Origin: Armatimonadota bacterium
Lineage (GTDB): Bacteria; Armatimonadota; UBA5829; DTLH01
Reading direction: 5' to 3'
DNA: 34,372 nt
Assembly: GCA_039680575.1 (NCBI GenBank)
Contig: JBDKSP010000080.1
Coordinates: 1-34,372 of the forward strand
Below are positions 3,526 through 26,299 of the stretch, in pieces. Numbering within the stretch: position 1 is the first letter of the stretch; each line of letters begins with the position of its first letter. Below the pieces are notes generated by a model. The model was not told the DNA's origin. It ran no database searches and was given only the letters and a program-made list of their open reading frames with translations. Both the position numbers and the translations under genes were made by a program.

Positions 3526-3580
3526 CGGGTGTATCGACAATTTGTACGCTCGGTTATTTTCATTACAATGGAGTGGCACT

Positions 3581-4633
3581 ATGACATCGGCTCGCAAACG
3601 CAGCTCATTCATCATATTCCTTATAATCGCATCCATGGGGCTTTTATCCGCCCAGTTGTCATCAGCAGCTGTAAAAAAAATGGTAAAGAAACCATCAGCG
3701 AAACCAAAGGTAAAGCTCGCATCGACTGCTAAACCGGATGCTGAACCAATCGAGTTTCTGTTCTTGCCGCCTGATGGAACGACATATGTAGAATCATTCA
3801 AAGGGACAAGAATTACAAGCGTAGACGGGTTAAAGCGTATCCCGGAGACCACCGAGTGGAAGACGCGCGTCACCATCACCAGGACTACCGATGGTTATCA
3901 CGTTGTTCGGACTCCGATCTCCTACTCTACGAGCGATATCGATGAAGAATCGATGCAAGCCATAATTTCACGGTGTCTTAGAACAGCCAAGATTGAATAC
4001 GATCTCGAACTGACCGGTTATTGTTCCAGAGTCACAGGAATGGACAAAGTAGTCGAAGATGTAAGGGCAAAAGTAGAAAAGCTGGAAAAGAATAATGGTA
4101 TAATCTACGACCCCGAAGACAGCGAAGATATCGATAAGGAATATGCCGATCTGCTCAAATCCCTTACTTCCTCGGAAGAAGGCACATGGAGCTCGAGATA
4201 TATGCAACTGATGGGACTCTATGTGAAACCTGGGGAGTCCATGGAAGAAGGACATGAGATGTCCATATTCTACGGGTTATCTTCACCCGGAACGATCGCA
4301 ACTGAGGTATTGGGGACGCAGAAAACCGGCAATCACGACTGTGTAAAAGTGCAGTATACGATGCATACGAACAACGACAAGCCTAATAAGTTCACAGAGC
4401 AAATGCTAAAAATGATGTTTCTGTCCTATACCGCGGTAAGATCCAGTTATTACGGCATTTCGCGCTTCTCTGCAGCGGCAAAGATGGAATGTGTTGTCGA
4501 CCCGGCCACATTACTTTTGCACTCCGAGTCTTCCAAATCCAACTCAGTAGTAGAAATAGCTTTTGAGAACGACATGAAAACTTCGCTTGCTTTCGATGAA
4601 TACGAACAGTATACTTTTGAATACGAAAAATAG
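3581..4633 (+). CDS. secreted hypothetical protein, tandem paralogue 1
   Basis: ATG 3581 with SD GGAG; signal peptide (RKR, then FIIFLIIASMGLLSAQLSSA); Lys/Pro-rich linker; shares several blocks with the next ORF. Confidence 0.75.
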   Translation: MTSARKRSSFIIFLIIASMGLLSAQLSSAAVKKMVKKPSAKPKVKLASTAKPDAEPIEFLFLPPDGTTYVESFKGTRITSVDGLKRIPETTEWKTRVTITRTTDGYHVVRTPISYSTSDIDEESMQAIISRCLRTAKIEYDLELTGYCSRVTGMDKVVEDVRAKVEKLEKNNGIIYDPEDSEDIDKEYADLLKSLTSSEEGTWSSRYMQLMGLYVKPGESMEEGHEMSIFYGLSSPGTIATEVLGTQKTGNHDCVKVQYTMHTNNDKPNKFTEQMLKMMFLSYTAVRSSYYGISRFSAAAKMECVVDPATLLLHSESSKSNSVVEIAFENDMKTSLAFDEYEQYTFEYEK

Positions 4634-4649
4634 ATGGAGGTGCCTGACG

Positions 4650-5627
4650 GTGAACTCAAATACGATTAAATCCATGTACATAGTCTTGATTATCGCCGTA
4701 TTAACACTTGCCGCTGGTTATGCGCAGGCAGCAACAGCAAAGACGAGTGAAGGAATAGCCTTCAGGTTCAATCCCCCTGATGGGATCACCTTCACCGAAA
4801 CAGGCAAGCACACTACCAAAGAGTATTTCTATGGTATTGCCTCCAAACCTGTTGTTATAACCACCAAGGCAAGGATAACTATCAAAAAGACCGACAAGGG
4901 ATACCGTGCATCCAGAATTCCTCTTTATTACAATGTCGAAGGTAATTCTTCAACAAATAAGAGCACCACTACAGATGCAATATTGAAATATCTCGATTGT
5001 ACGGTGCTGGAATATGAGCTTAACAAAGATGGCGAATGCATCGGGATCCTGGGACTCGAAAAGCTGATCGATGATATAGAAATAGAAGTGAGAAAAGTAG
5101 CCCCTCCGGGAATGCAGCTGAACCCGGAAGTGCTCATGTCGATGATAGCATCGGTAGAATCTATCGAAGCCGTACGCTGGAATGAGAAATTCGGCTATAT
5201 GACCGGATATTACATGAACGTGGGAGAGTCCATAAAGACATCGACACCTCAAGAACTCCCCCATAGTGGAGATCTGGTAAAAGCGAACTGTGTGATAAAA
5301 CTCTCTGAGCTTGTCAAAAAGGGAGGAAAAGAACTCGCTAAAATTCAATACAGTTCTTCGCTGGATAATGAAGCATTGAGTGATTGGTACAACAAATCCG
5401 GCGCATTTATGATCGGTTCCAATTCAGGTGCTTCATATGAGGCTATGGAAGTATCCAGCGCTGAACGGAAAGATAAAATAGAGCATACAATCTATCTTTC
5501 CACTCAACTTCCGTACTTTATCTCATCGAAGTCTACGATGAAAGTCGTAGGCTCTATATCCGATACCAGCAATATACGTTACTCATACGAGGAGTGGGAG
5601 CAGTACACTTACGATTATTCCAAATGA
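4650..5627 (+). CDS. secreted hypothetical protein, tandem paralogue 2
   Basis: GTG 4650 preceded by GGAGGTG; signal peptide ending AGYAQA; shared blocks FRFNPPDG, LEYELNKDGEC, WEQYTYDYSK. Confidence 0.75.
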   Translation: MNSNTIKSMYIVLIIAVLTLAAGYAQAATAKTSEGIAFRFNPPDGITFTETGKHTTKEYFYGIASKPVVITTKARITIKKTDKGYRASRIPLYYNVEGNSSTNKSTTTDAILKYLDCTVLEYELNKDGECIGILGLEKLIDDIEIEVRKVAPPGMQLNPEVLMSMIASVESIEAVRWNEKFGYMTGYYMNVGESIKTSTPQELPHSGDLVKANCVIKLSELVKKGGKELAKIQYSSSLDNEALSDWYNKSGAFMIGSNSGASYEAMEVSSAERKDKIEHTIYLSTQLPYFISSKSTMKVVGSISDTSNIRYSYEEWEQYTYDYSK

Positions 5628-5752: not shown

Positions 5753-6151
5753 GTGGAAAGTGAAGGATGGCTCAGGCTGAGAAAAGATTCCGAAGCTAAC
5801 TGGGTGCAGGCAAGGGCAGACTATGCGACTGCCGTCACTCTCCTTGATGCCGGTGTCTACTATGCCAGTGTATTCTTCAGCCAGCAAGCTGCTGAAAAGG
5901 CACTAAAGGCATATACTATCGACAAAACGGGCAAGAGCCCCAAGGGTCACAACCTGATTCAAATGGCTAACAATCTGGACGCCCCACTTGAGGTCATGAA
6001 CGCCACCGCAGAGTTGAACCCTGAGTTCCTGGCAACGAGAAACCCGGAAGCGTCGGACGGCGTGCCCGCGCAGATCTATGACCGCAAAAGTGCAAGGCTG
6101 CATCTCAGGTCAGCTCAGACCGTAGTAGACTGGATCAAATCTGTTATTTAA
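5753..6151 (+). CDS. HEPN domain protein (COG2250-like), no adjacent MNT partner
   Basis: ARADYATA..LL..G.YYASVFFSQQAAEKALKA, PKGHNL, and ATRNP in the RYP position; all-helical, about 130 aa. Start uncertain. Confidence 0.8.
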   Translation: MESEGWLRLRKDSEANWVQARADYATAVTLLDAGVYYASVFFSQQAAEKALKAYTIDKTGKSPKGHNLIQMANNLDAPLEVMNATAELNPEFLATRNPEASDGVPAQIYDRKSARLHLRSAQTVVDWIKSVI

Positions 6152-6282: not shown

Positions 6283-7803
6283 GTGAGTTATCTTTTAGGA
6301 ATAGATGTCGGCACCAGTGGTGTTAAAGCTCTGCTGGTCGATCCTGCAAGGGACGGGTTTACAGCAAGCTCCGCAACAAAGACTTATCCCCTCTTCACGC
6401 CGAACCCACTGTGGGCGGAGCAAAACCCCGAAGATTGGTGGAATGCTGCCCTTGCCGCAATCGGTGACGCAATGCGGCAGAGGGGTATTTCGGGCAAAGA
6501 CATCAAAGGCATCGGACTGAGCGGCCAGATGCACGGAGCTGTGTTTCTCGATGAAGCTAACCAGGTTATCCGGCCAAGCATCCTGTGGTGCGATCAACGA
6601 ACAGCAGTTGAGTGCGACTGGATCACTGAGAAAATCGGCGCGGAACGTATAATCGAGCTCATCAGCAACCCGGTGCTTACGGGATTCACTGCCGGAAAGA
6701 TCATCTGGCTGCGAAACAACGAACCTGAGGCATATTCCCGCGTCAAAAAGGTCCTGCTTCCAAAGGACTACATACGTCTCAGGCTTTCGGGTGAATATGC
6801 TACAGATGTCTCCGACGCCTCCGGAACGGCTCTCTTCAACGTCAAGGGACGGACCTGGTCTGGTGAGATGCTGGATGCGCTTAATATTCCAGGGGAGTGG
6901 ATGCCCCGCGTTTATGAGTCACCGGAGATAACCGGCCGGATAACCGCCGAAGCTGCTGCTGTTTCCGGTCTCGAACCCGGCACACCTGTTGTCGCAGGCG
7001 GCGGTGACAACGCCGCAAGCGCCGTTGGGAATGGGATAGTAGAGCCGGGATTAGTCTTCTCATCGATCGGAACATCCGGTGTCGTCTTCGCTTATGCCGA
7101 TGAGCCTGTCGTCGACCCAAAACTGCGCGTCCACACATTCTGTCATGCAGTCCCGGGCAAATGGCATGTGATGGGAGTGGTCCTGTCTGCCGGAGGCAGC
7201 CTCAGATGGTACAGAGACACTTTTTGCGAAGCTGAAAATGCAGTTGCCGGGCATACTAATCGTGACACTTATGATATACTATCAGAGGAAGCAGACGGTG
7301 TCCCTCCTGGGTGCGAAGGTCTCGTCTTTTTACCGTATTTGACCGGCGAGAGGACCCCTCACGCCGATCCTTACGCGCGCGGTGTCTTTTTCGGCATCAC
7401 GCTCAGGCATAGCAAGCCGTATTTCGCGCGAGCCGTGATGGAAGGTGTGAGCTATGCAATGAGGGACTCTTTTGAGATCATGAAAGAGATGGGGGTTCCG
7501 CTGACTCAGGTCCGTGCTACCGGCGGCGGAGCCAGAAGCGCTCTCTGGAGACAGATAGAAGCCGATATTACCGGCAAGGAGCATGTCACTGTCAATACCG
7601 AAGAAGGACCGGCTTTCGGAGCCGCACTCCTCGCCGGAGTCGGAACAGGCGTTTATCCGAGTGTAATTGAGGCTTGTAAGTCTGCCATCCGTGTGGAAAA
7701 ATCTACTGAGCCAATTCAAAATAACATCCCGATATACGAGCGATACTACCGTGTTTACCAGGATCTTTATAAATCGCTCAAACCGGACTTCAGGCTGGTA
7801 TAG
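6283..7803 (+). CDS. xylB: xylulokinase (FGGY family)
   Basis: LGIDVGTSGVKA, GLSGQMHG, ILWCDQRT, LLPKDYI, TDVSDASGT, GGGDNAA, FLPYLTGERTPH, GGGARS. Confidence 0.92.
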   Translation: MSYLLGIDVGTSGVKALLVDPARDGFTASSATKTYPLFTPNPLWAEQNPEDWWNAALAAIGDAMRQRGISGKDIKGIGLSGQMHGAVFLDEANQVIRPSILWCDQRTAVECDWITEKIGAERIIELISNPVLTGFTAGKIIWLRNNEPEAYSRVKKVLLPKDYIRLRLSGEYATDVSDASGTALFNVKGRTWSGEMLDALNIPGEWMPRVYESPEITGRITAEAAAVSGLEPGTPVVAGGGDNAASAVGNGIVEPGLVFSSIGTSGVVFAYADEPVVDPKLRVHTFCHAVPGKWHVMGVVLSAGGSLRWYRDTFCEAENAVAGHTNRDTYDILSEEADGVPPGCEGLVFLPYLTGERTPHADPYARGVFFGITLRHSKPYFARAVMEGVSYAMRDSFEIMKEMGVPLTQVRATGGGARSALWRQIEADITGKEHVTVNTEEGPAFGAALLAGVGTGVYPSVIEACKSAIRVEKSTEPIQNNIPIYERYYRVYQDLYKSLKPDFRLV

Positions 7804-7812
7804 AGCTAGCCC

Positions 7813-7877
7813 GCTTTATTCGTGAAACGAATAAAGCTCTCACTAAAACAGTGTTATTCACTAGAAACGTGAATAAT
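7813..7877 (+). other. two related intergenic hairpins/palindromes
   Basis: GCTTTATTCG-tgaaa-CGAATAAAGC (7813-7837) and TTATTCAC-tagaaac-GTGAATAA (7854-7876); no U-tract. Confidence 0.5.
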
Positions 7878-7898
7878 GCGGGTTAGGAGATTTTGAAT

Positions 7899-8543
7899 AT
7901 GAAGTTTTTCGTCGACACTGCCAATGTCGAAAACATCCGAAAGGCCTGCTCCTGGGGCGTGGTTGACGGCGTGACAACCAACCCGTCTCTTGTTGCCAAA
8001 GAAGGCCGCGACTTCAAGAAGACAATTCTCGAGATCTGCAGCATTATCAATGGCCCCGTAAGCGCAGAAGTAGTCAGTCTCGACGCTGAGGGTATGGTCC
8101 GGGAAGCGCGCGAGATCGTAGAATGGCATGAGAATATAGTCATAAAGATCCCTATGACAAAGGATGGTATGATTGCGGTCCGCAAGCTGTCAGAAGAAGG
8201 GATCCGAACCAATGTGACTCTTATCTTTTCTCTGAACCAGGCGCTTATCGCCGCCAAAGCCGGAGCAACCTACATAAGCGTCTTTGTCGGGAGGCTCGAT
8301 GACGTAGGACACGAAGGAATGGATGTCGTCCACGACACAGTACAGATGCTGGACACATATTCGTTCGATTCCGAAGTGATTGTGGCAAGCGTACGCCATC
8401 CCCTTCACGTGGTCCAGGCAGCCAGAGTCGGCGCGCAAGTCTGCACAATCCCGTTTGCTGTGCTCGACCAGATGTTCAATCACCCATTGACAGATGCAGG
8501 GATAGAAAAGTTTTTAAAAGACTGGGAATCGGTTCCCAAATAA
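7899..8543 (+). CDS. tal: transaldolase (short Tal/FSA family)
   Basis: [21 protein letters not shown], catalytic [26 protein letters not shown]. The Glu in SAEV and Phe in FVGR indicate transaldolase rather than FSA. ATG 7899 with SD AGGAG. Confidence 0.9.
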
Positions 8544-15898: not shown

Positions 15899-16162
15899 CG
15901 TTAACCTCCTCTAGATACTCGCGGCCATCAATGGCCACACGAATAAAATGCCGCGCGTTATTTGGAGCAACGCTGCGGCAACATAGCGAATCATTCGCTT
16001 ATAAACCAACGAGATTATATGCCTCCGTGACTGTTTATGTCAATCCTGACCTACTCGAAACAAGGGCTAGGTGTTCGTGTCTGGTATAGATATCTTTCTA
16101 TTCATCGCATAAGAAGGTTTTTTGCAAATAAGATCGAAGTCTTTACTGTGAAAGGAGTCAAT

Positions 16163-17104
16163 ATGGAGAAATTATCATATAATGGCTGGCCTAACTGCAT
16201 CAGGATGTCCAGCGGCAGTGTTGAGCTTATAATCACGACCGATGTAGGACCGAGAATTATCCGATACGGGTTTGTTGGTCAGGAAAACGAGCTTTACGAG
16301 TTTTCGGATCAAGCCGGAAAGACAGGCGGAAATGAGTTCAGGCTGTACGGCGGACACCGGCTTTGGCTTGCACCCGAGAGGAAAGACCTTACTTATTTTC
16401 CGGATAACTCCACCGTAGATTACGAAACGGATAGTAACACACTGCGGTTGATTCCGGGTATCGAGAGCACTACAGGCATTCAAAAAGAGCTGCTCATTAC
16501 ACTTGACCAGAATGACAGCAGCGTCAAAATAGTGCATAAAGTTACCAACCGATCCAGCCACAGCATCGAGCTGGCTCCGTGGGCTCTCTCTATGATGACG
16601 CCGGGCGGTTTCGGAATTATTCCGCAGGAGCCGTATTCACCGCATCCCGACATACCCGATTATCCCGGCCAGGTCATTGATCCCAAATACTATCTGCCTG
16701 TCCGAACGATGGTCCTGTGGTCATATACCGATCTGAGCGACCACCGGCTGCGGTTCATGCCTAAGTACATCACACTCCGGCAGGACAAAAACACCGCGCT
16801 GGCGATTAAGCTGGGACTAAGCAACTCTCTGAGATGGGCCGCCTATGCCAGAAACAGGCATTTATTCATCAAGACGTTCTCATACGACCCAAAAGTAGCC
16901 TACCCGGACAACGGATGCAATTTCGAGATATTCACCGATAGCAAATTCATGGAAATTGAGAGTCTTGGCCCACTCAGGGCGCTGCCTGCCGGTCAGAGCA
17001 TAATTCATGAGGAAACATGGTCCCTTTTCGACCATGTTGATGTTGACCCAACAGAAGAAAGCATCGACGCAAACGTGCTCCCCAAGGTTTTTGCCAATTT
17101 ATGA
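16163..17104 (+). CDS. hypothetical protein, DUF4380 / galactose-mutarotase-like beta-sandwich
   Basis: ATG 16163 after AAAGGAG; DVGPRIIRY, YGGHRLWLAPE, APWALSMM, YPDNGCNFE, EIESLGPL, HEETW. Confidence 0.7.
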   Translation: MEKLSYNGWPNCIRMSSGSVELIITTDVGPRIIRYGFVGQENELYEFSDQAGKTGGNEFRLYGGHRLWLAPERKDLTYFPDNSTVDYETDSNTLRLIPGIESTTGIQKELLITLDQNDSSVKIVHKVTNRSSHSIELAPWALSMMTPGGFGIIPQEPYSPHPDIPDYPGQVIDPKYYLPVRTMVLWSYTDLSDHRLRFMPKYITLRQDKNTALAIKLGLSNSLRWAAYARNRHLFIKTFSYDPKVAYPDNGCNFEIFTDSKFMEIESLGPLRALPAGQSIIHEETWSLFDHVDVDPTEESIDANVLPKVFANL

Positions 17105-19675: not shown

Positions 19676-20566
19676 CTATGCCCTCGGGTGCGATTTTCTA
19701 TAGACTTCACGCAGGTGTTCGCGCGTGACATGAGTGTAGACCTGAGTCGTTGCAATATCTGCATGCCCCAGCATCTCCTGTATCGACCTTATGTCCGCGC
19801 CATGCTCCAGGAGATGCGTCGCAAATGAATGCCTGAGCACGTGAGGAGTTATCTGCTTGGTTATACCTGCGGATTTCGCGTATTTTTTGACGATCTTCCA
19901 AAAACCGACTCTTGTCATGGGACCGCCGAGGCGCGTGATAAACAGATACTCGTTCCTCAAACCTTTTGCGAATATCGGGCGGCTCTCGTTCAGATAACGG
20001 CGGATCATCCCGACGGCTATATCGCCTATCGGCACAACCCGCTCCTTGGAGCCTTTTCCAACGCATCTCACGAACCCTACGCCCAGGTTCACATCATTCG
20101 TGAGCAGGTTTACGAGTTCGGATACTCTGAGCCCCGTCGCGTACATCGTCTCGAGCATCGCCCGGTCTCTTATTCCGTTGGGCTCGGACAGGTCCGGTTG
20201 GCTCAAGAGCCTCACGATATCGTCTTCAGTAAGTATCTTTGGAAGCGGTTTTGCCGGGCGAGGATTCTCGATAGCGCTTGCGGGATCGCCTGAAATATCA
20301 CCCTCGCGCTGAAGAAACTTGAGGAACGTCCTAAGAGCAGCGAATTTCCTCTCCACGCTAGATGCCGCGTACTTCTCGCGCCGGAGTCTTGCGATAAACT
20401 TGGTAATGAGTTCTTCATGGATGCCTTTAACGGTATCTACACCCATTTCGTCCGAATATGCGGCAAATTGGGCGACATCCAGCGCATAGGAAGCTATGGT
20501 ATTCTTCGAAAGGCCGCGCTCGACCATTAGATAATCGAGAAATTTTTGAATATGAGCATCCATCAT
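19676..20566 (-). CDS. xerD: site-specific tyrosine recombinase XerD
   Basis: ERGLSKNT, RDRAMLETMYATGLRVSEL, GKGSKERVVP, PHVLRHSFATHLL, QEMLGHADIATTQVYTHV; xerD-deoB adjacency as in Firmicutes. Confidence 0.92.
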   Translation of the reverse strand: MMDAHIQKFLDYLMVERGLSKNTIASYALDVAQFAAYSDEMGVDTVKGIHEELITKFIARLRREKYAASSVERKFAALRTFLKFLQREGDISGDPASAIENPRPAKPLPKILTEDDIVRLLSQPDLSEPNGIRDRAMLETMYATGLRVSELVNLLTNDVNLGVGFVRCVGKGSKERVVPIGDIAVGMIRRYLNESRPIFAKGLRNEYLFITRLGGPMTRVGFWKIVKKYAKSAGITKQITPHVLRHSFATHLLEHGADIRSIQEMLGHADIATTQVYTHVTREHLREVYRKSHPRA

Positions 20567-22200
20567 ATTTTCCGGTAGATTTTTATCGTCGGCGACATAT
20601 ACTTCAGGTCATGCGGCAGATGCTCTGTCGAGCCGAAAGAGATATTAAAGGCCTTCAGGTCCTTTTTGAACACCGCAACTTCCTTATAAGACCTGTTCAG
20701 TCTGTCCATAAACTTCATGGCGCTTGGAATCCGCAGCCTGCCGGCATCTTCATACTCGAAATCGGTCATTACGATGTATTCCGGCATTTTCCCGCTCACG
20801 ATCGACGGGTCCCATTCCTGACCCGGATCGGGGTTAACCTTGATACTGTAGCGCGAGTCAACCGTCCCCTGGAACCGGTCGCTGTGATTTATAGCCGTAG
20901 AGTCCGGCGAGATCGGCGGAGTATAAAACCACGGCACGGTCGGAAGGCCGATTGTAGATGACGGCTTAACGTTATCATTGAACCACTGAGCAGCCTGTGT
21001 TCTCGTGTCAGGTGCAAGGAACAACCGGTCTAGAGATATCGCATAGATGCAGGTATGACCTATTACCGCGGCGCATATACCGACCCAGACCCACCTGAGC
21101 AAAGCCGTTCCCTGATCCTTCGCCACCTGGTAGACTTCCACTATCATACGGCCGGCGAGTATCGCAACAGGCGGAAGTATCAGGATCATATAACGGGCAA
21201 ACCTTACTTCCGACAGTGAGATCATCGTGTAGTAAGGGACAACGAACGACAGTATAAGCCAATCAGCAGGTTTCCGCCGGACCATAGCCAATGCGACTGC
21301 AGCAAGGACCACCACAAGCAGGAATACCCCGAGTCCGTAGCCAAGCGAGTTGACTAAAATATCGAACCAACCCGGACCTTTTCCCTGGAACACAAGTCCA
21401 TGCCCGCTTCCCGCATGCCTCAGCTCATAGATAAACCCTTCGACGAACCGCCCCGGACGAATAAAGACCGCCGGAGTAGAGATAAAGAACCCTAGCAGGA
21501 ACGAGGGTCCTGCCGTCCAAAACTTTGAGTCTCTTATCCGCTTCAGGAATGGGACCTTGCCTTCTCTCAAAAAATGAGCCAGGAGGACCGGAATGAACAC
21601 AACTGCCGCATTATACTTTGTCCCTGCGGCAATGCCAGATGCGACTCCTGCCGCGATATACCATTTCAGAGCCGGTTTTGTGATAATCATCGCTGCAGTA
21701 AGCAGCGTTACAGCCACCCAGAATGCGGCGGGGACGTCCACCGTTGCAAAATGCGAGTGGACGATGTGAAGCGGGATGATGGCCATAATCAAAGCAGCCA
21801 ACACGCCTGCCGCGCGGCCGTAAAGCCGGCTTGCGGCACCGTAAACAACTGAAACTGTCAGCGCGCCGAGAAGAACAACTGTAATCCTGGCAATCAGATA
21901 AACACTGATAAGCGATTTGTCTATTGTTATCCCGTAATATGGTGCGGTATGAACCGCCAGCGCGCCGAGGTTCATATATCCTGATGGGTAATTATAGAAC
22001 CCTGGGTCGAGTTGAAACGAGAACGGATCTATCCTCAACATCGCGCCTATCTGGAAGACTTCATCCGGATGGTACGTAAATTGATGGAAAGCATCAGGCA
22101 AACCCCAATGGATACCGCATATACGGAATGCGAATGCAGCAATTGTGATGAAAGCGACTGCGGCGGCCACCCAAAACTGCGCGACAGGCTGTTTCTTCAT
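20563..22200 (-). CDS. GT-C fold membrane glycosyltransferase (ArnT/PMT_2, GT39/83-like)
   Basis: Polytopic membrane protein with HPDE after TM1, FYNYPS, HSHFATVD, GTKYNA, FARY, and a soluble C-terminal domain. Confidence 0.8.
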   Translation of the reverse strand: MKKQPVAQFWVAAAVAFITIAAFAFRICGIHWGLPDAFHQFTYHPDEVFQIGAMLRIDPFSFQLDPGFYNYPSGYMNLGALAVHTAPYYGITIDKSLISVYLIARITVVLLGALTVSVVYGAASRLYGRAAGVLAALIMAIIPLHIVHSHFATVDVPAAFWVAVTLLTAAMIITKPALKWYIAAGVASGIAAGTKYNAAVVFIPVLLAHFLREGKVPFLKRIRDSKFWTAGPSFLLGFFISTPAVFIRPGRFVEGFIYELRHAGSGHGLVFQGKGPGWFDILVNSLGYGLGVFLLVVVLAAVALAMVRRKPADWLILSFVVPYYTMISLSEVRFARYMILILPPVAILAGRMIVEVYQVAKDQGTALLRWVWVGICAAVIGHTCIYAISLDRLFLAPDTRTQAAQWFNDNVKPSSTIGLPTVPWFYTPPISPDSTAINHSDRFQGTVDSRYSIKVNPDPGQEWDPSIVSGKMPEYIVMTDFEYEDAGRLRIPSAMKFMDRLNRSYKEVAVFKKDLKAFNISFGSTEHLPHDLKYMSPTIKIYRKI

Positions 22201-22209
22201 TAGTCCTGG

Positions 22210-22818
22210 TTAACCTTCCTTCGCTACCTGTGATGAGGATTTCGGTTTTCGCGGACACATCGTTATCTGGATCAGGATAAATATGCCGATAGCCATCAGA
22301 ACATCGCCGATACTGAATATCCCCGAAAATACTTTTGAAAGCACCCCGGGGAGAGCATCCGTAATGAGCTTGGGGACCGGTACAATATCACCCAGAAAGT
22401 TGAACCGGGTGCTCCCCGACATTACGATGTGTCTCATCCCTTCTGACCGCGTCAGCACATCCTCGACTCCCGCGATAGTGGCGGCCTTTACGGAAACAGG
22501 CATCTTTCCTGCATTGAATGCTATCGGAAACAGGTTCAACACCCATCCTGCCAGGAACCACTTCATCCCCGGCAGTTTTCGATTCTCCCAGAAGAATACA
22601 AGAAACGCAATGCTTGCGATTATGTGCAGCAGGCCGGTCAGATGCGACCAGAGAGGGGTTTTACCTGAATATTTTCCTATCACCAGAGAAACAATGATGA
22701 TGAATGCCGGGATAAAGACAAGCCATAGGCTTTTTATCTCCAAATCCGCAAGCCGCTGGAGTCGTCCACGGCGTATGAGCGCTATTATAATCGAGAGAAT
22801 ACCGACCTCAAACGCCAA
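22210..22818 (-). CDS. DUF5317-like membrane protein (candidate LspA-like aspartic peptidase)
   Basis: LIRRGRLQRLADL, N..LPGM, GWVLNLFPIAFNAGKMPVS, RH, FLGDIVP, FSIGDVLMAIG recognised as the DUF5317 pattern. Probable TTG start 22818 (SD AGGTG) overlapping the upstream HD-GYP stop. Confidence 0.75.
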   Translation of the reverse strand: MAFEVGILSIIIALIRRGRLQRLADLEIKSLWLVFIPAFIIIVSLVIGKYSGKTPLWSHLTGLLHIIASIAFLVFFWENRKLPGMKWFLAGWVLNLFPIAFNAGKMPVSVKAATIAGVEDVLTRSEGMRHIVMSGSTRFNFLGDIVPVPKLITDALPGVLSKVFSGIFSIGDVLMAIGIFILIQITMCPRKPKSSSQVAKEG

Positions 22819-23497
22819 TTTCACACCTGCCTTCACACTTTTCAAGGACTTTCAGAAATGCATCCACAACTGAAGGATCATACTTGTTACCGGAACCGCT
22901 TTTTATCTGCTTTATGGCCTCTTCTTTCGGTTGAGACTGATGGTATGGCCTATCCGAAATGATGGCATCATAATCGGTAGTTACAGCAAGAATACGAGAT
23001 GCAAGAGGTATATCCTCACCCGATAAACCTTCAGGATAGCCGGTCCCGTCCCAATGCTCATGGTGATGAAGGATCGAATCACCCAAAAATGAAAGCGATG
23101 GCACCGCATGGACCATCTCTGCGCCGAGTGTTGAGTGATTCTTTACCTTCTCCCATTCATCAGGAGTCAGGGGATCGCTTTTGTTAAGCAGCATTGCCGG
23201 AACATTCACTTTCCCGATGTCCCTCAAGAGCGCGGCATATTCTATCTCCAGCCGCTTATCCGTATCTATCCCCAGTTCATCCGCTACATCGGTCGCATAA
23301 TCAGCTACCCTCTTTGCGTGGCCGATAGTACCTGAGTCCCTGGTTTCGACGGCAGCCGCAAGAGCGTAAAGCGCCTTTTTGAAGGCCAACTCCATCTTGC
23401 GGGGTTGATAGAAGCTGGAATAATACCAACTTCCAAAAGTTATGATCGCAGCAACAGCCACCGCAATTATAACCGGCGTTGTCCACTGGCTAGTCAT
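22808..23497 (-). CDS. single-TM HD-GYP domain protein with degenerate HD motif
   Basis: N-terminal TM (VIIAVAVAAIITFGSWY), GHAKRV, LLRDIGK (HD to RD), HHHEHWDGTGYPEGL, SDRPYH; ATG 23497 with SD GGAGG, overlapping the upstream stop. Confidence 0.85.
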   Translation of the reverse strand: MTSQWTTPVIIAVAVAAIITFGSWYYSSFYQPRKMELAFKKALYALAAAVETRDSGTIGHAKRVADYATDVADELGIDTDKRLEIEYAALLRDIGKVNVPAMLLNKSDPLTPDEWEKVKNHSTLGAEMVHAVPSLSFLGDSILHHHEHWDGTGYPEGLSGEDIPLASRILAVTTDYDAIISDRPYHQSQPKEEAIKQIKSGSGNKYDPSVVDAFLKVLEKCEGRCEIGV

Positions 23498-25046
23498 TGC
23501 CTCCAACCCTTATCCCCTCCCTGTCGACCATCTTGAGAAATGCGCGCACGACATCCGGCGAAAACTGTGACCCTGCGCCTCTTCTAAGCTCATTGATCGC
23601 CTCATCGATACCAAGCGGTTCTCGATATACCCTGCGTTTCAGCGCGCCGCAGACAGGGCATATCTCCGGGCGCCCGCCGTTTTCGGGCTTGAAACCACAC
23701 GTATCGCACTCCCAGTCAACGGACATCTCCCGGTCGTCAGTCATGGCATCGAAGGCATCAGCGACAGCGATAATTGCGGCCTCTAGCGGGACTCCGCCGT
23801 TTCTAACCCCATCGTCAGGATAACCCGCGCCGTTTGCCCATTTGTGATGATACTTTATCCAATTTACAGTCTGGTTCAGAAAATCGATATGCGCAACGAT
23901 CTCAGCACCTTTTACCGGATGCTCCTTGATCTTCGACCATTCTTCATCCGTCAATTTTCCAACTTTGTCTAAGATTTCCTCGGATACTCCTACTTTTCCG
24001 ATGTCATGCAGCAGCCCGGCGTAAGGCATCAGCATAATCGTCTCGGCGGAAAGCCTGAGCTCTCTTGCAAGCCGCTCGGAAAGCTCGGCGACACGCTTCA
24101 GGTGTCCCCTTGTATACGGATGGTAATGCTGCATGTAGGTACCTAGAGTAGCAATGGTATCCATATACATTTTTTCCCGCTCGACTGCCCTCTGCACTGC
24201 AAGCCGGAGTGAAAGAAACGGTCCAAGCGCTACTAACCCGCTCAATATCCCGACATGCAGATATAGATAGATCAAAAGGACGGTGACCGGCGGAAGCAGC
24301 AGGTATTGGCTCCATGTCAGACGCACGCTGCCCAGGAGAAGGATTTTCAACTTGAGGACAAAGCTGTACCAATCACTGCCTTTTCTAGACGACTGAGGTT
24401 CATTTACCAGAGCTGCAGTGGCGCACCGCGCTTCATCAACTATAAAATATGTAATTATGCCGACCAAAAACGGCAGCGCGGCATGTAGAAATAGTGTACA
24501 GTTCGAAGCAGCCATAAAATATCGCTGATCCAGAACATGCCCCCCTACGCACAGGTATGCGAGCGCGGCAAGCCCTACATTTATTACATCAAGCGCAGTA
24601 TTGGCGGTTATAATCTCGAGCGCCCAGAGAAATGGATAATCGGATCTCTCTTCCCAAGCGCCCGCTAGAGTCCTGATAATACTGTGAAGGCGTCCCGTTC
24701 CGGTATCCGACTCATGGTTTTTCAGCCACCTGGCGCATATCCATCCGGTAATATTGACTGCGGGCAAGGGAATTGCGGCGACAAGCATTGCGAGGACAGG
24801 TCCGAAGAGCACCATGGTAGCCCAATGCATGGGAACGCTTATTGTTACTTCTCCCAAGCCACGCGGCACCGTAATTGGGGTAAGCTCCGACCATATTGCA
24901 AGTACTGCAAAGGCTAACGCCCCTTTCCAAGCACCTGCCTCAGGTGGAATCACCCATTGCATTACAACTGCCATAGCCACCGCGGTCACTATCGACCCAC
25001 GGTAAAAGAGATGGAAGGACCTCTTACTGCTTGCCATTCGAATCAT
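23490..25046 (-). CDS. multi-TM sensor HD-GYP protein with inserted rubredoxin-like finger
   Basis: Roughly 7-8 hydrophobic segments, then YTRGHLKRV, LLHDIGK, HPVKGAEI, HHKWANGAGYP, VADAFDAMTDDR, inserted WECDTCG-x-CPVCGA, YREP, GSQFSPDVV. Confidence 0.88.
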   Translation of the reverse strand: MIRMASSKRSFHLFYRGSIVTAVAMAVVMQWVIPPEAGAWKGALAFAVLAIWSELTPITVPRGLGEVTISVPMHWATMVLFGPVLAMLVAAIPLPAVNITGWICARWLKNHESDTGTGRLHSIIRTLAGAWEERSDYPFLWALEIITANTALDVINVGLAALAYLCVGGHVLDQRYFMAASNCTLFLHAALPFLVGIITYFIVDEARCATAALVNEPQSSRKGSDWYSFVLKLKILLLGSVRLTWSQYLLLPPVTVLLIYLYLHVGILSGLVALGPFLSLRLAVQRAVEREKMYMDTIATLGTYMQHYHPYTRGHLKRVAELSERLARELRLSAETIMLMPYAGLLHDIGKVGVSEEILDKVGKLTDEEWSKIKEHPVKGAEIVAHIDFLNQTVNWIKYHHKWANGAGYPDDGVRNGGVPLEAAIIAVADAFDAMTDDREMSVDWECDTCGFKPENGGRPEICPVCGALKRRVYREPLGIDEAINELRRGAGSQFSPDVVRAFLKMVDREGIRVGGND

Positions 25047-25333
25047 GTGGGCTGCTTAGAGCTTGGTTTTGATATTCTGGAATAATGACCCTAGTATAAA
25101 ATGCCACCTCTAAGGAGTTTTGGGTAATGAGTGACAATCTTACGGACACATAACCAGTCATTGATAATGCTGCATCTATTGGTTTTGCCAAAACTCTTAT
25201 TGTAACCTCTATTGGTAAAGATGGCGAATATTTTAGCACAATAGTAATAAAAATATTGAGCCAACGGCAACGACAGTATTACTTCAAGAACTGCTGTGTA
25301 CCTGCATACATCCATCAGTCCAATAATTACGAA

Positions 25334-25420
25334 CTATGGGGGCGGCCACTGTCTCCATGTGGCTCCGCAGGTTGCAGCCAGTGTCGCCAATGCGATCAGT
25401 ACCTTGAACAGGCGTTTCAT
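25334..25420 (-). CDS. small peptide ORF, 28 aa: MKRLFKVLIALATLAATCGATWRQWPPP
   Basis: Translated by hand (below the ORF-track cut-off). ATG 25420 preceded by SD AAAGGGG; basic N-region, hydrophobic core and Trp/Pro tail; co-oriented with the flanking genes. Confidence 0.75.
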   Translation of the reverse strand: MKRLFKVLIALATLAATCGATWRQWPPP

Positions 25421-25452
25421 GTTTTCAACCCCTTTCGCGTGATTACTACCCC

Positions 25453-25524
25453 TTACCGCTCAAGAGGGGTGCATTCATCGCTTCGCTCGGGTTGACTTTA
25501 CCGCTCACTTTGGATCTGCCGCTC
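25453..25524 (-). promoter_or_regulatory. cluster of GAGCGG motifs in the leader of the peptide ORF
   Basis: CCGCTC (+ strand) at 25456, 25501 and 25519, variant TCGCTC at 25483; identical 10-mer TTACCGCTCA at 25453 and 25498. Confidence 0.45.
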
Positions 25525-25547
25525 GCGCCGTTGGCTCAATTCAAAAA

Positions 25548-26201
25548 CTATTCTCTAATTATCAATGTAGTTCGCCGGTTAATGGCATCTAATGTAGCAT
25601 TAACCACAGCTTTCCATAAATCCTGCCTGACTATTGCAGAACCTGTTAAATAATCATCTCCGCGGTTCGTGACAAAGTTGATCAATACCACAACAATGTT
25701 CTTGCCGGCCAGATTGACGCCTGTAGTCATATCTTCGACTATCATAGTGCCATCAGCCGCGCCTGCGTCTTCGACCGCACGCAGCGTTGCGGTTGCAATG
25801 AGCTTCATCTGACTGCTGCTCGAACTCAATCCTGTAGCAGTCCCCGTGTAAACCACGCCGTCTCTCCCTAGATGGACCGTAGCTTCCGCTCTGCTCCCTT
25901 CAAGAGAGATCGAAACGTCCGAAAACCTTAATCTACCCTGCTCCTTTTTCTCATTGCCCTGAAGTTGAGCTACGCTGACCTTTCGATGATCGATCTGGAC
26001 TCCAAGTTTAGCCATGACTGCCGATTCAATGTCACGCACAACCTGCTTGGGGGCTCTACTGGCTTCCGTCAGAACGTGAATCTCCTCGATCTCTCCATCA
26101 TCGCCTGAGACTATTCGCGCCGATATCACGTCGCGCAGCCGGCATATAACGGACTCAACATCAATCAGATCGTCGATATTTCCTTTTCTCTCGACTGCCA
26201 T
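25548..26201 (-). CDS. conserved hypothetical protein with LeuA allosteric (dimerisation)-like C-terminal repeats
   Basis: ATG 26201 with SD AAAGGAG (217 aa). N-domain IEEIHVL...PKQVVRDIESA...IDHRKVSVAQ; two beta3-alpha units ending IATATLRAV and AVVNATLDAINR. Confidence 0.7.
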   Translation of the reverse strand: MAVERKGNIDDLIDVESVICRLRDVISARIVSGDDGEIEEIHVLTEASRAPKQVVRDIESAVMAKLGVQIDHRKVSVAQLQGNEKKEQGRLRFSDVSISLEGSRAEATVHLGRDGVVYTGTATGLSSSSSQMKLIATATLRAVEDAGAADGTMIVEDMTTGVNLAGKNIVVVLINFVTNRGDDYLTGSAIVRQDLWKAVVNATLDAINRRTTLIIRE

Positions 26202-26272
26202 TCTCCGCTCTCCTTTCGCCGCTACTTCCTTAAAGCGGCACCCTCTCTTTTCCTCTTCGCCATTCGTAACTT

Positions 26273-26299
26273 TCATCGCCCGAATGGTCTTTTGCCTGA
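26273..26299 (-). promoter_or_regulatory. possible sigma28 (FliA/SigD)-type promoter
   Basis: Minus strand TCAG-N15-GGCGATGA versus consensus TAAA-N15-GCCGATAA. Confidence 0.3.

Follow-up and report, generated by a model that had tools for sequence, protein, structure and literature searches.

Gene order and the peptide gene

The window analyzed here is positions 1 to 34,372 of contig JBDKSP010000080.1 (assembly GCA_039680575.1). Its source organism belongs to Armatimonadota, and the names of the homologs agree with this. Between pheST and a PMT_2 glycosyltransferase gene, the window carries five open reading frames (ORFs), all on the minus strand. They encode a 217-amino-acid (aa) protein that we call X217, a peptide of 28 aa, two HD-GYP proteins (HD-GYP1 and HD-GYP2, hereafter HD1 and HD2) and a DUF5317 membrane protein:

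25548..26201, minus strand: X217, with a BolA/KH-II-like N-terminal alpha-beta domain and a C-terminal LeuA/CimA regulatory-domain fold (AlphaFold2 model, predicted local distance difference test score [pLDDT] 88)
25334..25420, minus strand: peptide gene, 28 aa, MKRLFKVLIALATLAATCGATWRQWPPP, with a basic n-region, an uncharged 13-residue run to Gly19 and an aromatic, Pro-rich tail
23490..25046, minus strand: HD1, 518 aa, with a polytopic, probably MASE9-related membrane domain and an HD-GYP domain (Pfam and motif reading)
22808..23497, minus strand: HD2, 229 aa from the ATG, with a single transmembrane (TM) helix, RPYH, and RD in place of the HD motif
22210..22818, minus strand: DUF5317, 202 aa, a five-helix membrane protein and candidate aspartic peptidase (PF17248, E 1.7e-29)

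A preliminary description of this DNA had listed five co-oriented genes with overlapping stop and start codons. All five ORFs are confirmed, and the overlaps are 8 nucleotides (HD1/HD2) and 11 nucleotides (HD2/DUF5317). Its suggestion that the cassette was inserted among core genes is not borne out as a recent event, given the ordinary GC content of the cassette (0.49-0.52 vs. 0.51 in the window) and the recurring gene order. Of 301 Armatimonadota genomes, 46 were found to contain DUF5317, and 40 of the 45 phylum loci other than the window were examined, the remaining five being omitted because the gene lies near a contig start. The order pheT-X217-HD1-HD2-DUF5317-glycosyltransferase is complete in 15 of the 40, and X217 lies within 7 kb in 21. 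Outside the phylum, we used the best 80 of 535 confirmed DUF5317 loci (the far loci), a set biased to Bacillota. The module is known from Armatimonadota, Bacillota, Atribacterota and Chloroflexota, and its carriers include the non-pathogenic, culturable Thermoanaerobacter, Geobacillus and Symbiobacterium.

The peptide gene can be followed across these loci. Peptides score 27-52 bits against a peptide profile and the other short ORFs, among 26,988, at most 13.4 bits. Differences among 13 relatives number 693, 504 and 1207 at codon positions 1, 2 and 3. Because the profile scores split cleanly and substitutions favor third codon positions, the ORF goes beyond chance, and by these measures it is a genuine gene. 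The preliminary description had asked for a conserved small ORF beside DUF5317 and HD-GYP genes in other genomes, and such an ORF is found. The peptide follows X217 in all 21 phylum loci in which X217 lies upstream of DUF5317, and adjoins DUF5317 in 69 of the 80 far loci; an HD-GYP gene is beside DUF5317 in 73 of the 80. X217 is present in 43 far loci, every one of which has the peptide, and two more loci have the peptide but lack X217. In 24 far loci (nearly all Bacilli), a divergent peptide lies downstream of DUF5317, ahead of a membrane GGDEF/HD-GYP protein. Of the 11 far loci without a peptide, seven are cut by contig ends and four have full flanks. There is a single copy in the window genome by profile search, and tandem copies elsewhere: seven (L088:7580-8430), five (L120:7558-8070) and two (L109). 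Judging from these distributions, the peptide gene, the structured leader described below and the four proteins are co-inherited.

The peptides share a leader and differ in their tails. For 85 of 88 peptides the alignment was anchored on a small-small-Gly pattern, so that the method itself imposes the Gly; an unanchored alignment of 32 peptides likewise shows an invariant Gly19. Among the 85, the hydrophobic leader ends with the consensus L-[AT]-[GSC]-G, the uncharged run has a median of 13 residues, the tails are 4-12 residues long with an aromatic residue in 80, and a Cys precedes the Gly in nine. In five of five groups, conservation is higher in the leader than in the tail, e.g., 0.96 vs. 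0.57 in the window family and 0.74 vs. 0.24 in Bacillaceae. The lipobox reads L-A/S-G/A-C, and the hydrophobic regions of lipoprotein signal peptides are short (PMC9360617). We infer from the consensus that the peptide motif is a lipobox in which Gly replaces Cys. No named family was found in NCBIfam for the peptides, X217 or DUF5317.

A structured RNA leader and X217

The RNA leader around the peptide gene and the role of X217 both lie outside the account given in the preliminary description. The leader contains the following features:

25526..25540, minus strand: 5' arm of a long-range helix, a 15-bp pairing in the window
25456..25523, minus strand: five AGCG[AG] repeats, at -103, -85, -67, -62 and -40 from the peptide start, the last in a hairpin loop
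25426..25495, minus strand: extended hairpin, the base of which pairs with the peptide ribosome-binding site (per-sequence folds)
25255..25269, minus strand: 3' arm of the long-range helix, 64 nucleotides after the peptide stop

In the long-range helix, 8 of the 13 pairs are changed on both sides among 13 relatives, and 97.6% of the cells are paired; slid controls for the whole leader structure reach at most 52%. In a simple ungapped test, only 20 of the 67 loci have a helix that outscores every one of the 30 shuffles. The region 25245-25545 folds with a minimum free energy z score of -4.39, and the Shine-Dalgarno (SD) sequence is paired in 60 of 67 leaders. RNAalifold returned no consensus pairs for a 40-sequence leader alignment, so the inner hairpin rests on the per-sequence folds and on weaker pair counts (63.8% paired). 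The density of AGCG[AG] in the 67 leaders is 2.76 per 140 nucleotides vs. 0.35 in the background, and 37 of 51 leaders place their last repeat in a hairpin loop (shuffles: mean 6.3, maximum 10).

The repeats are associated with X217. AGCG occurs at least twice in 41 of the 43 far leaders with X217, and zero times or once in 14 loci without X217 (L048, L109 and the 12 that were checked among the 24 Bacilli-type loci). In L059, X217 is downstream, yet the repeats still precede the peptide. By these counts, the AGCG repeats track X217. When the window genome was searched with a leader model, this leader was the best and sole significant match. We considered a wider AGCG regulon and rejected it, as neither a second leader nor a second peptide was found in the window genome. 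No Rfam family matched the leader at the gathering score in the window and 10 far loci.

The X217 start at 26201 is supported by relatives. The preliminary description had called the protein LeuA-allosteric-like, which agrees with the predicted fold of residues 88-212; there is no Pfam match, and PF08502 is found on 2 of 120 listed homologs. Foldseek matches LeuA (E 3e-6) and also proteins with double-stranded RNA-binding domains. The best VIA alignments are with 3f6g (Z 9.7, root-mean-square deviation [rmsd] 3.1, 109 residues aligned) and 5nfk (Z 7.5, rmsd 2.3, 68 residues aligned). The modeled fold and the co-occurrence suggest that X217 is an RNA-binding regulator of the peptide leader. Autoregulation through AGCG at its own start was suggested by the window and then rejected, since 12 of 104 loci is the background level.

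The C-terminal domain of X217 also ends a CBS-CBS-GGDEF (AGDEF) protein in the window genome and many relatives (L173:4262-5599; G000:C71:30249-31598), and this fusion is widespread among Armatimonadota. In family f18, such a fusion is encoded about 5 kb from the cassette (L163:159-1457). When longer X217 fusions were searched for, a single protein was retrieved and the CBS-GGDEF fusion described above was not recovered. In P0283 (836 aa), Fe-S/hydrogenase-like domains are fused to GGDEF and to a region resembling X217. A raiA RNA lies about 700 nucleotides upstream of X217 in one locus (L062:3800-4016).

The HD-GYP pair

The preliminary description had proposed a polytopic HD-GYP protein followed by a degenerate one with a single TM helix, and this holds. 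HD1 retains the metal ligands H, HD, HH and D as well as GYP and RVYR (RxY[K/R]). It does not match the full HHExh[D/N]GxGYP motif, and the HHK that it carries is found within the window organism's order. Because of the RxY[K/R] motif (available text of 10.1101/2021.11.05.467447), cyclic di-GMP (c-di-GMP) is the likelier substrate. PF20972 (MASE9) does not match the window HD1 and is above the cut-off in 6 of 12 orthologs, and a profile of our own links both sets; by way of these orthologs, the HD1 membrane domain appears MASE9-related. The MASE9 ligand is unknown and is predicted to bind within the membrane, according to the available text of the same paper. In the window order and in L016, a rubredoxin-like CxxC...CxxC zinc-ribbon insert (about 23637-23714 in the window) is located between DAMT and RxYR, and could add redox or metal sensing. 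In HD2, the HD motif reads RD in the window and in 7 of 18 relatives, HE in one and HD in one, and no motif matches in nine. HD2 is probably a catalytically impaired partner.

The preliminary description had called for a complex model of the peptide tail with the TM domain; a model with the uncut precursor passed weakly. For the peptide and HD1 membrane domain of L004 (window family), the score is 0.46 and that of the best control 0.01; at least 66% of contacts are shared between runs, with a partner pLDDT of at least 54. Among solved pairs, 116 of 157 attained the score mark, as did 2 of 215 mismatched pairs; those that attained it with a score of at most 0.60 are 18 solved pairs and both mismatches. 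The model gives weak support to contact between peptide and HD1.

The window genome contains 10 GGDEF matches and six GEMM-I riboswitches. Two of the six (C31:11319-11407 and C51:9690-9777) have an A at the specificity position, which we take to switch specificity to cyclic GMP-AMP. Three c-di-GMP-I aptamers lie about 4 kb from the cassette in L059 (14011-14379).

DUF5317

The assignment to DUF5317 made earlier is confirmed by the PF17248 match. The predicted structure (pLDDT 94) has five helices and a small sheet region. In 141 sequences, G91, N102, M106, P107, S169, G171 and D172 are invariant and D144 is present in 140. The motifs G-x3-N, D and [SN]-x-[GA]-D-x5-G parallel those of LspA, a likeness of pattern only. 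Both aspartates appear to face outward, with which the charge distribution is compatible. By analogy DUF5317 may work like LspA; kinship is unproven, and we do not class it as LspA. Compared with 48,161 chains, the DUF5317 model aligns with LspA structures 5dir (Z 4.6, rmsd 3.6, 93 residues, rank 6) and 6ryp (Z 4.4, rmsd 7.4, 102 residues, rank 14), both tied with unrelated bundles. Foldseek, followed by a second look with VIA, gave no clear fold for DUF5317, and a PDB sequence search gave one chance match only. The ESM Atlas had no match for DUF5317, and its clusters for X217 were all unnamed.

Two tandem DUF5317 paralogs are found in L050, L066 and L072 (about 6980-8350). The window genome (96.8% complete) has no lspA (PF01252) match vs. 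presence in 28 of 31 genomes searched, which is probably an assembly gap.

Genomes that carry X217 without DUF5317

Among the 301 phylum genomes, 42 have DUF5317 and full-length X217, 29 have X217 only, four have DUF5317 only (fragmented assemblies) and 226 have neither. An alignment search found DUF5317 in none of 10 of the 29 X217-only genomes and in five of five positive controls. The X217 tree requires no fewer than two changes (54 rows, 12 left out). The hydrophobic core of the peptide is weaker where DUF5317 was not found, in genomes G221 and G134 and in family f29 (0.9-1.8 vs. 2.1-3.1). In f29, the peptide was found in 8 of 14, and most AGCG repeats are lost in G221 and f29. The fragmented genome G076 keeps a hydrophobic peptide. 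The constant partner of the peptide is thus the membrane HD-GYP protein, and DUF5317 is usual but dispensable. The decay of the core favors a coupling of the peptide leader to DUF5317 in some lineages. In G221 (L156:1880-2273), the peptide core contains Pro, Asn and Asp, the leader has no AGCG repeats, and short tandem repeats follow.

Comparison with known systems

The agr system consists of AgrD, AgrB, AgrC and AgrA, and its precursor has a conserved ring-forming Cys or Ser and a charged C-terminal tail. The preliminary description had proposed agr logic with an HD-GYP output. A short precursor, a dedicated membrane protein and a polytopic sensor do share one locus, a conserved leader is joined to a variable core, and an aspartate pair is present; every test of agr membership that we ran was negative. 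AgrB (PF04647) has no match in the window genome and is not among the top 25 families listed for DUF5317 members. The locus has no histidine kinase or response regulator, Pfam showing HD-GYP only. The peptides have aromatic tails, with neither a conserved Cys nor an acidic tail, the output is an HD-GYP protein, and an RNA leader adds a further layer. The module is not agr.

CsrA/RsmA, TRAP and HutP are translational or attenuation regulators. The leader resembles their targets in having a repeated short RNA motif next to the SD, partly in hairpin loops, and differs in the AGCG motif, in the protein fold and in the one target found per genome. X217 residues 88-212 have the fold of the LeuA/CimA regulatory domain (3F6G, 3FIG); in contrast to LeuA/CimA, X217 lacks a catalytic domain, and its shared domain accompanies either a BolA/KH-II-like domain or CBS-GGDEF. 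Like LspA (PF01252; 5DIR, 6RYP), DUF5317 has two aspartates after a G-x3-N helix, the second in [SN]-x-[GA]-D-x5-G, with a spacing of 18 vs. 22 residues; the aspartates are probably outward-facing and the candidate substrate motif is lipobox-like. It differs in its five helices and an insert of about 35 residues before the first Asp, the first 56 residues of LspA are unaligned, Gly takes the place of the lipidated Cys at +1, and homology is not significant.

MASE9-HD-GYP phosphodiesterases include TM1467 of Thermotoga maritima and HdgA of Streptomyces venezuelae, the latter with the degenerate HdgB, according to the available text of 10.1101/2021.11.05.467447 and PMC6205966. The arrangement of a polytopic HD-GYP protein followed by a degenerate one is shared with the window. 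PMC6205966 reports hdgA-hdgB as an active-degenerate pair with no developmental phenotype, whose authors suspect a missing activating signal. The window HD1 and six close orthologs miss PF20972; further differences are the HHK motif and the zinc-ribbon insert, and HD2 has one TM helix where HdgB, in that text, has six. Neither a peptide nor DUF5317 is named in the available parts of the two accounts.

Proposed mechanism and alternatives

We propose, with about even confidence, that a processed peptide is the input to a MASE9-type HD-GYP phosphodiesterase, its translation being gated by X217. X217 would bind the AGCG repeats and decide whether the buried ribosome-binding site opens, and the outer helix would close off, or help to excise, a small peptide mRNA. 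The precursor would enter the membrane in the manner of a lipoprotein signal peptide. DUF5317 would cleave it at L-[AT]-[GSC]-G by means of two outward-facing aspartates and release an aromatic peptide of 5-13 residues (in the window, from Gly19 or Ala20 on). The released peptide would bind the MASE9-type membrane domain of HD1 and alter its phosphodiesterase activity, a step that is weakly modeled, with HD2 as a mostly inactive partner. The C-terminal domain that X217 shares with the diguanylate cyclase fusion may close a feedback loop. More tentatively, and with distinct doubt, this would be a new class of peptide cell-cell signaling, with a Cys-free lipobox precursor, DUF5317 as a new family of aspartic peptidases, the species-specific tail as a MASE9 ligand that sets c-di-GMP turnover, and X217 as a new RNA-binding family that gates through AGCG RNA and is wired to a diguanylate cyclase by the shared domain.

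Several results weigh against the proposed mechanism. Of the 71 genomes with full X217, 29 yielded no DUF5317, and family f18, one of those in which it was not found, keeps a fully hydrophobic peptide in 10 of 10. This pattern argues against an obligate maturase role and a fixed five-gene system; of the earlier idea that DUF5317 matures the peptide, the protease-like aspartate pair is supported. The resemblance to LspA is not significant in hhalign (probability 1.8%), PF01252 is not among the 25 weak families listed for 141 DUF5317 members, and in the model comparison the Z scores of 4.6 and 4.4 are within the background. No peptide was found in the four fully flanked far loci (L074, L089, L097 and L101). 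HD1 reads HHK rather than HHE, and its E185 loop reads HYHPY, without an E185-type residue; these two features leave its activity uncertain. RNA binding by X217 is deduced from fold and co-occurrence, and its N-terminal domain is net acidic. The L004 model was built with the uncut precursor; it yielded no contacts and does not distinguish a processed peptide from an uncut one. Kinship among the genomes also means that the counts overstate independence.

Some of these observations would suit an uncut membrane micro-protein that binds and regulates HD1 within the same cell, as MgrB does with PhoQ, with DUF5317 as an optional subunit or a removing protease and X217 setting the level. In f18, f29 and G134, the peptide, X217 and HD1 are retained although DUF5317 was not found, the weak model pass came from the whole precursor, and tight control of translation fits feedback inside the cell. 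With a median of 13 residues, the uncharged run is however short for a stable TM anchor, and variable tails on conserved leaders together with five to seven tandem copies better fit a dosed signal. We consider this the main alternative, close to the proposed mechanism in likelihood, if somewhat unlikely. The structured leader and buried SD, with PPP before the stop in the window organism's class, could also belong to a leader or arrest peptide that ends in poly-Pro and acts in cis on the expression of the HD-GYP genes downstream of it, and Pro-containing tails are kept where hydrophobicity decays. But Pro tails are missing in all but one of the 69 far peptides, the Bacilli ORF comes after DUF5317 and is repeated, and a separate promoter-like element precedes HD1, so that we find control in cis improbable. 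Still harder to credit is a type I toxin-like membrane peptide that is silenced by 5'-3' long-range pairing and merely linked to the HD-GYP genes. Type I toxin mRNAs do have a small hydrophobic product, a buried SD and end-to-end pairing, all of which are seen here; yet there is one copy in the window genome, and the link to HD-GYP and DUF5317 is fixed across phyla, even after rearrangement (L059, Bacilli).

In the literature on DUF5317, MASE9/TM1467 HD-GYP proteins, peptides with HD-GYP, Armatimonadota and peptidases, of which few subscription papers were covered, we found no description of the module. It looks like an undescribed route for peptide control of c-di-GMP. If the proposed processed-peptide input is correct, the orphan MASE9 sensor domain would gain a ligand and DUF5317 a function, and the module would add a new RNA-protein switch as well as a direct route from peptide to second messenger in Armatimonadota, Bacillota, Atribacterota and Chloroflexota. 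An uncut micro-protein would still represent an undescribed control of c-di-GMP enzymes.

Promoter-like elements and neighboring genes

The peptide gene and HD1 are set apart by an AT-rich stretch of 287 nucleotides that contains promoter-like sites. A predicted promoter element in this gap and the glycosyltransferase gene beyond DUF5317 have the following positions:

25093..25108, minus strand: predicted -10-like element of a separate HD1-HD2-DUF5317 promoter
20563..22200, minus strand: PMT_2-type membrane glycosyltransferase, a conserved neighbor within Armatimonadota

CATAAT was seen by eye at the equivalent spot in eight of nine same-order gaps, and two further promoter-like sites (9 of 12 matches) are on the minus strand of the gap. 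A separate promoter probably drives HD1-HD2-DUF5317. Three RNA runs of one study, checked for expression, gave only short partial matches.

The PMT_2 glycosyltransferase was not seen at the far loci in any test made. Within the phylum, it remains next to DUF5317 when the cassette splits (L007, L008, L022, L023 and L030), and in family f18 it directly follows HD2. Elsewhere in the window, three ORFs of 346-363 aa without a Pfam match and a small HEPN-domain ORF are located at 3542-5627, 5753-6151 and 16037-17104.

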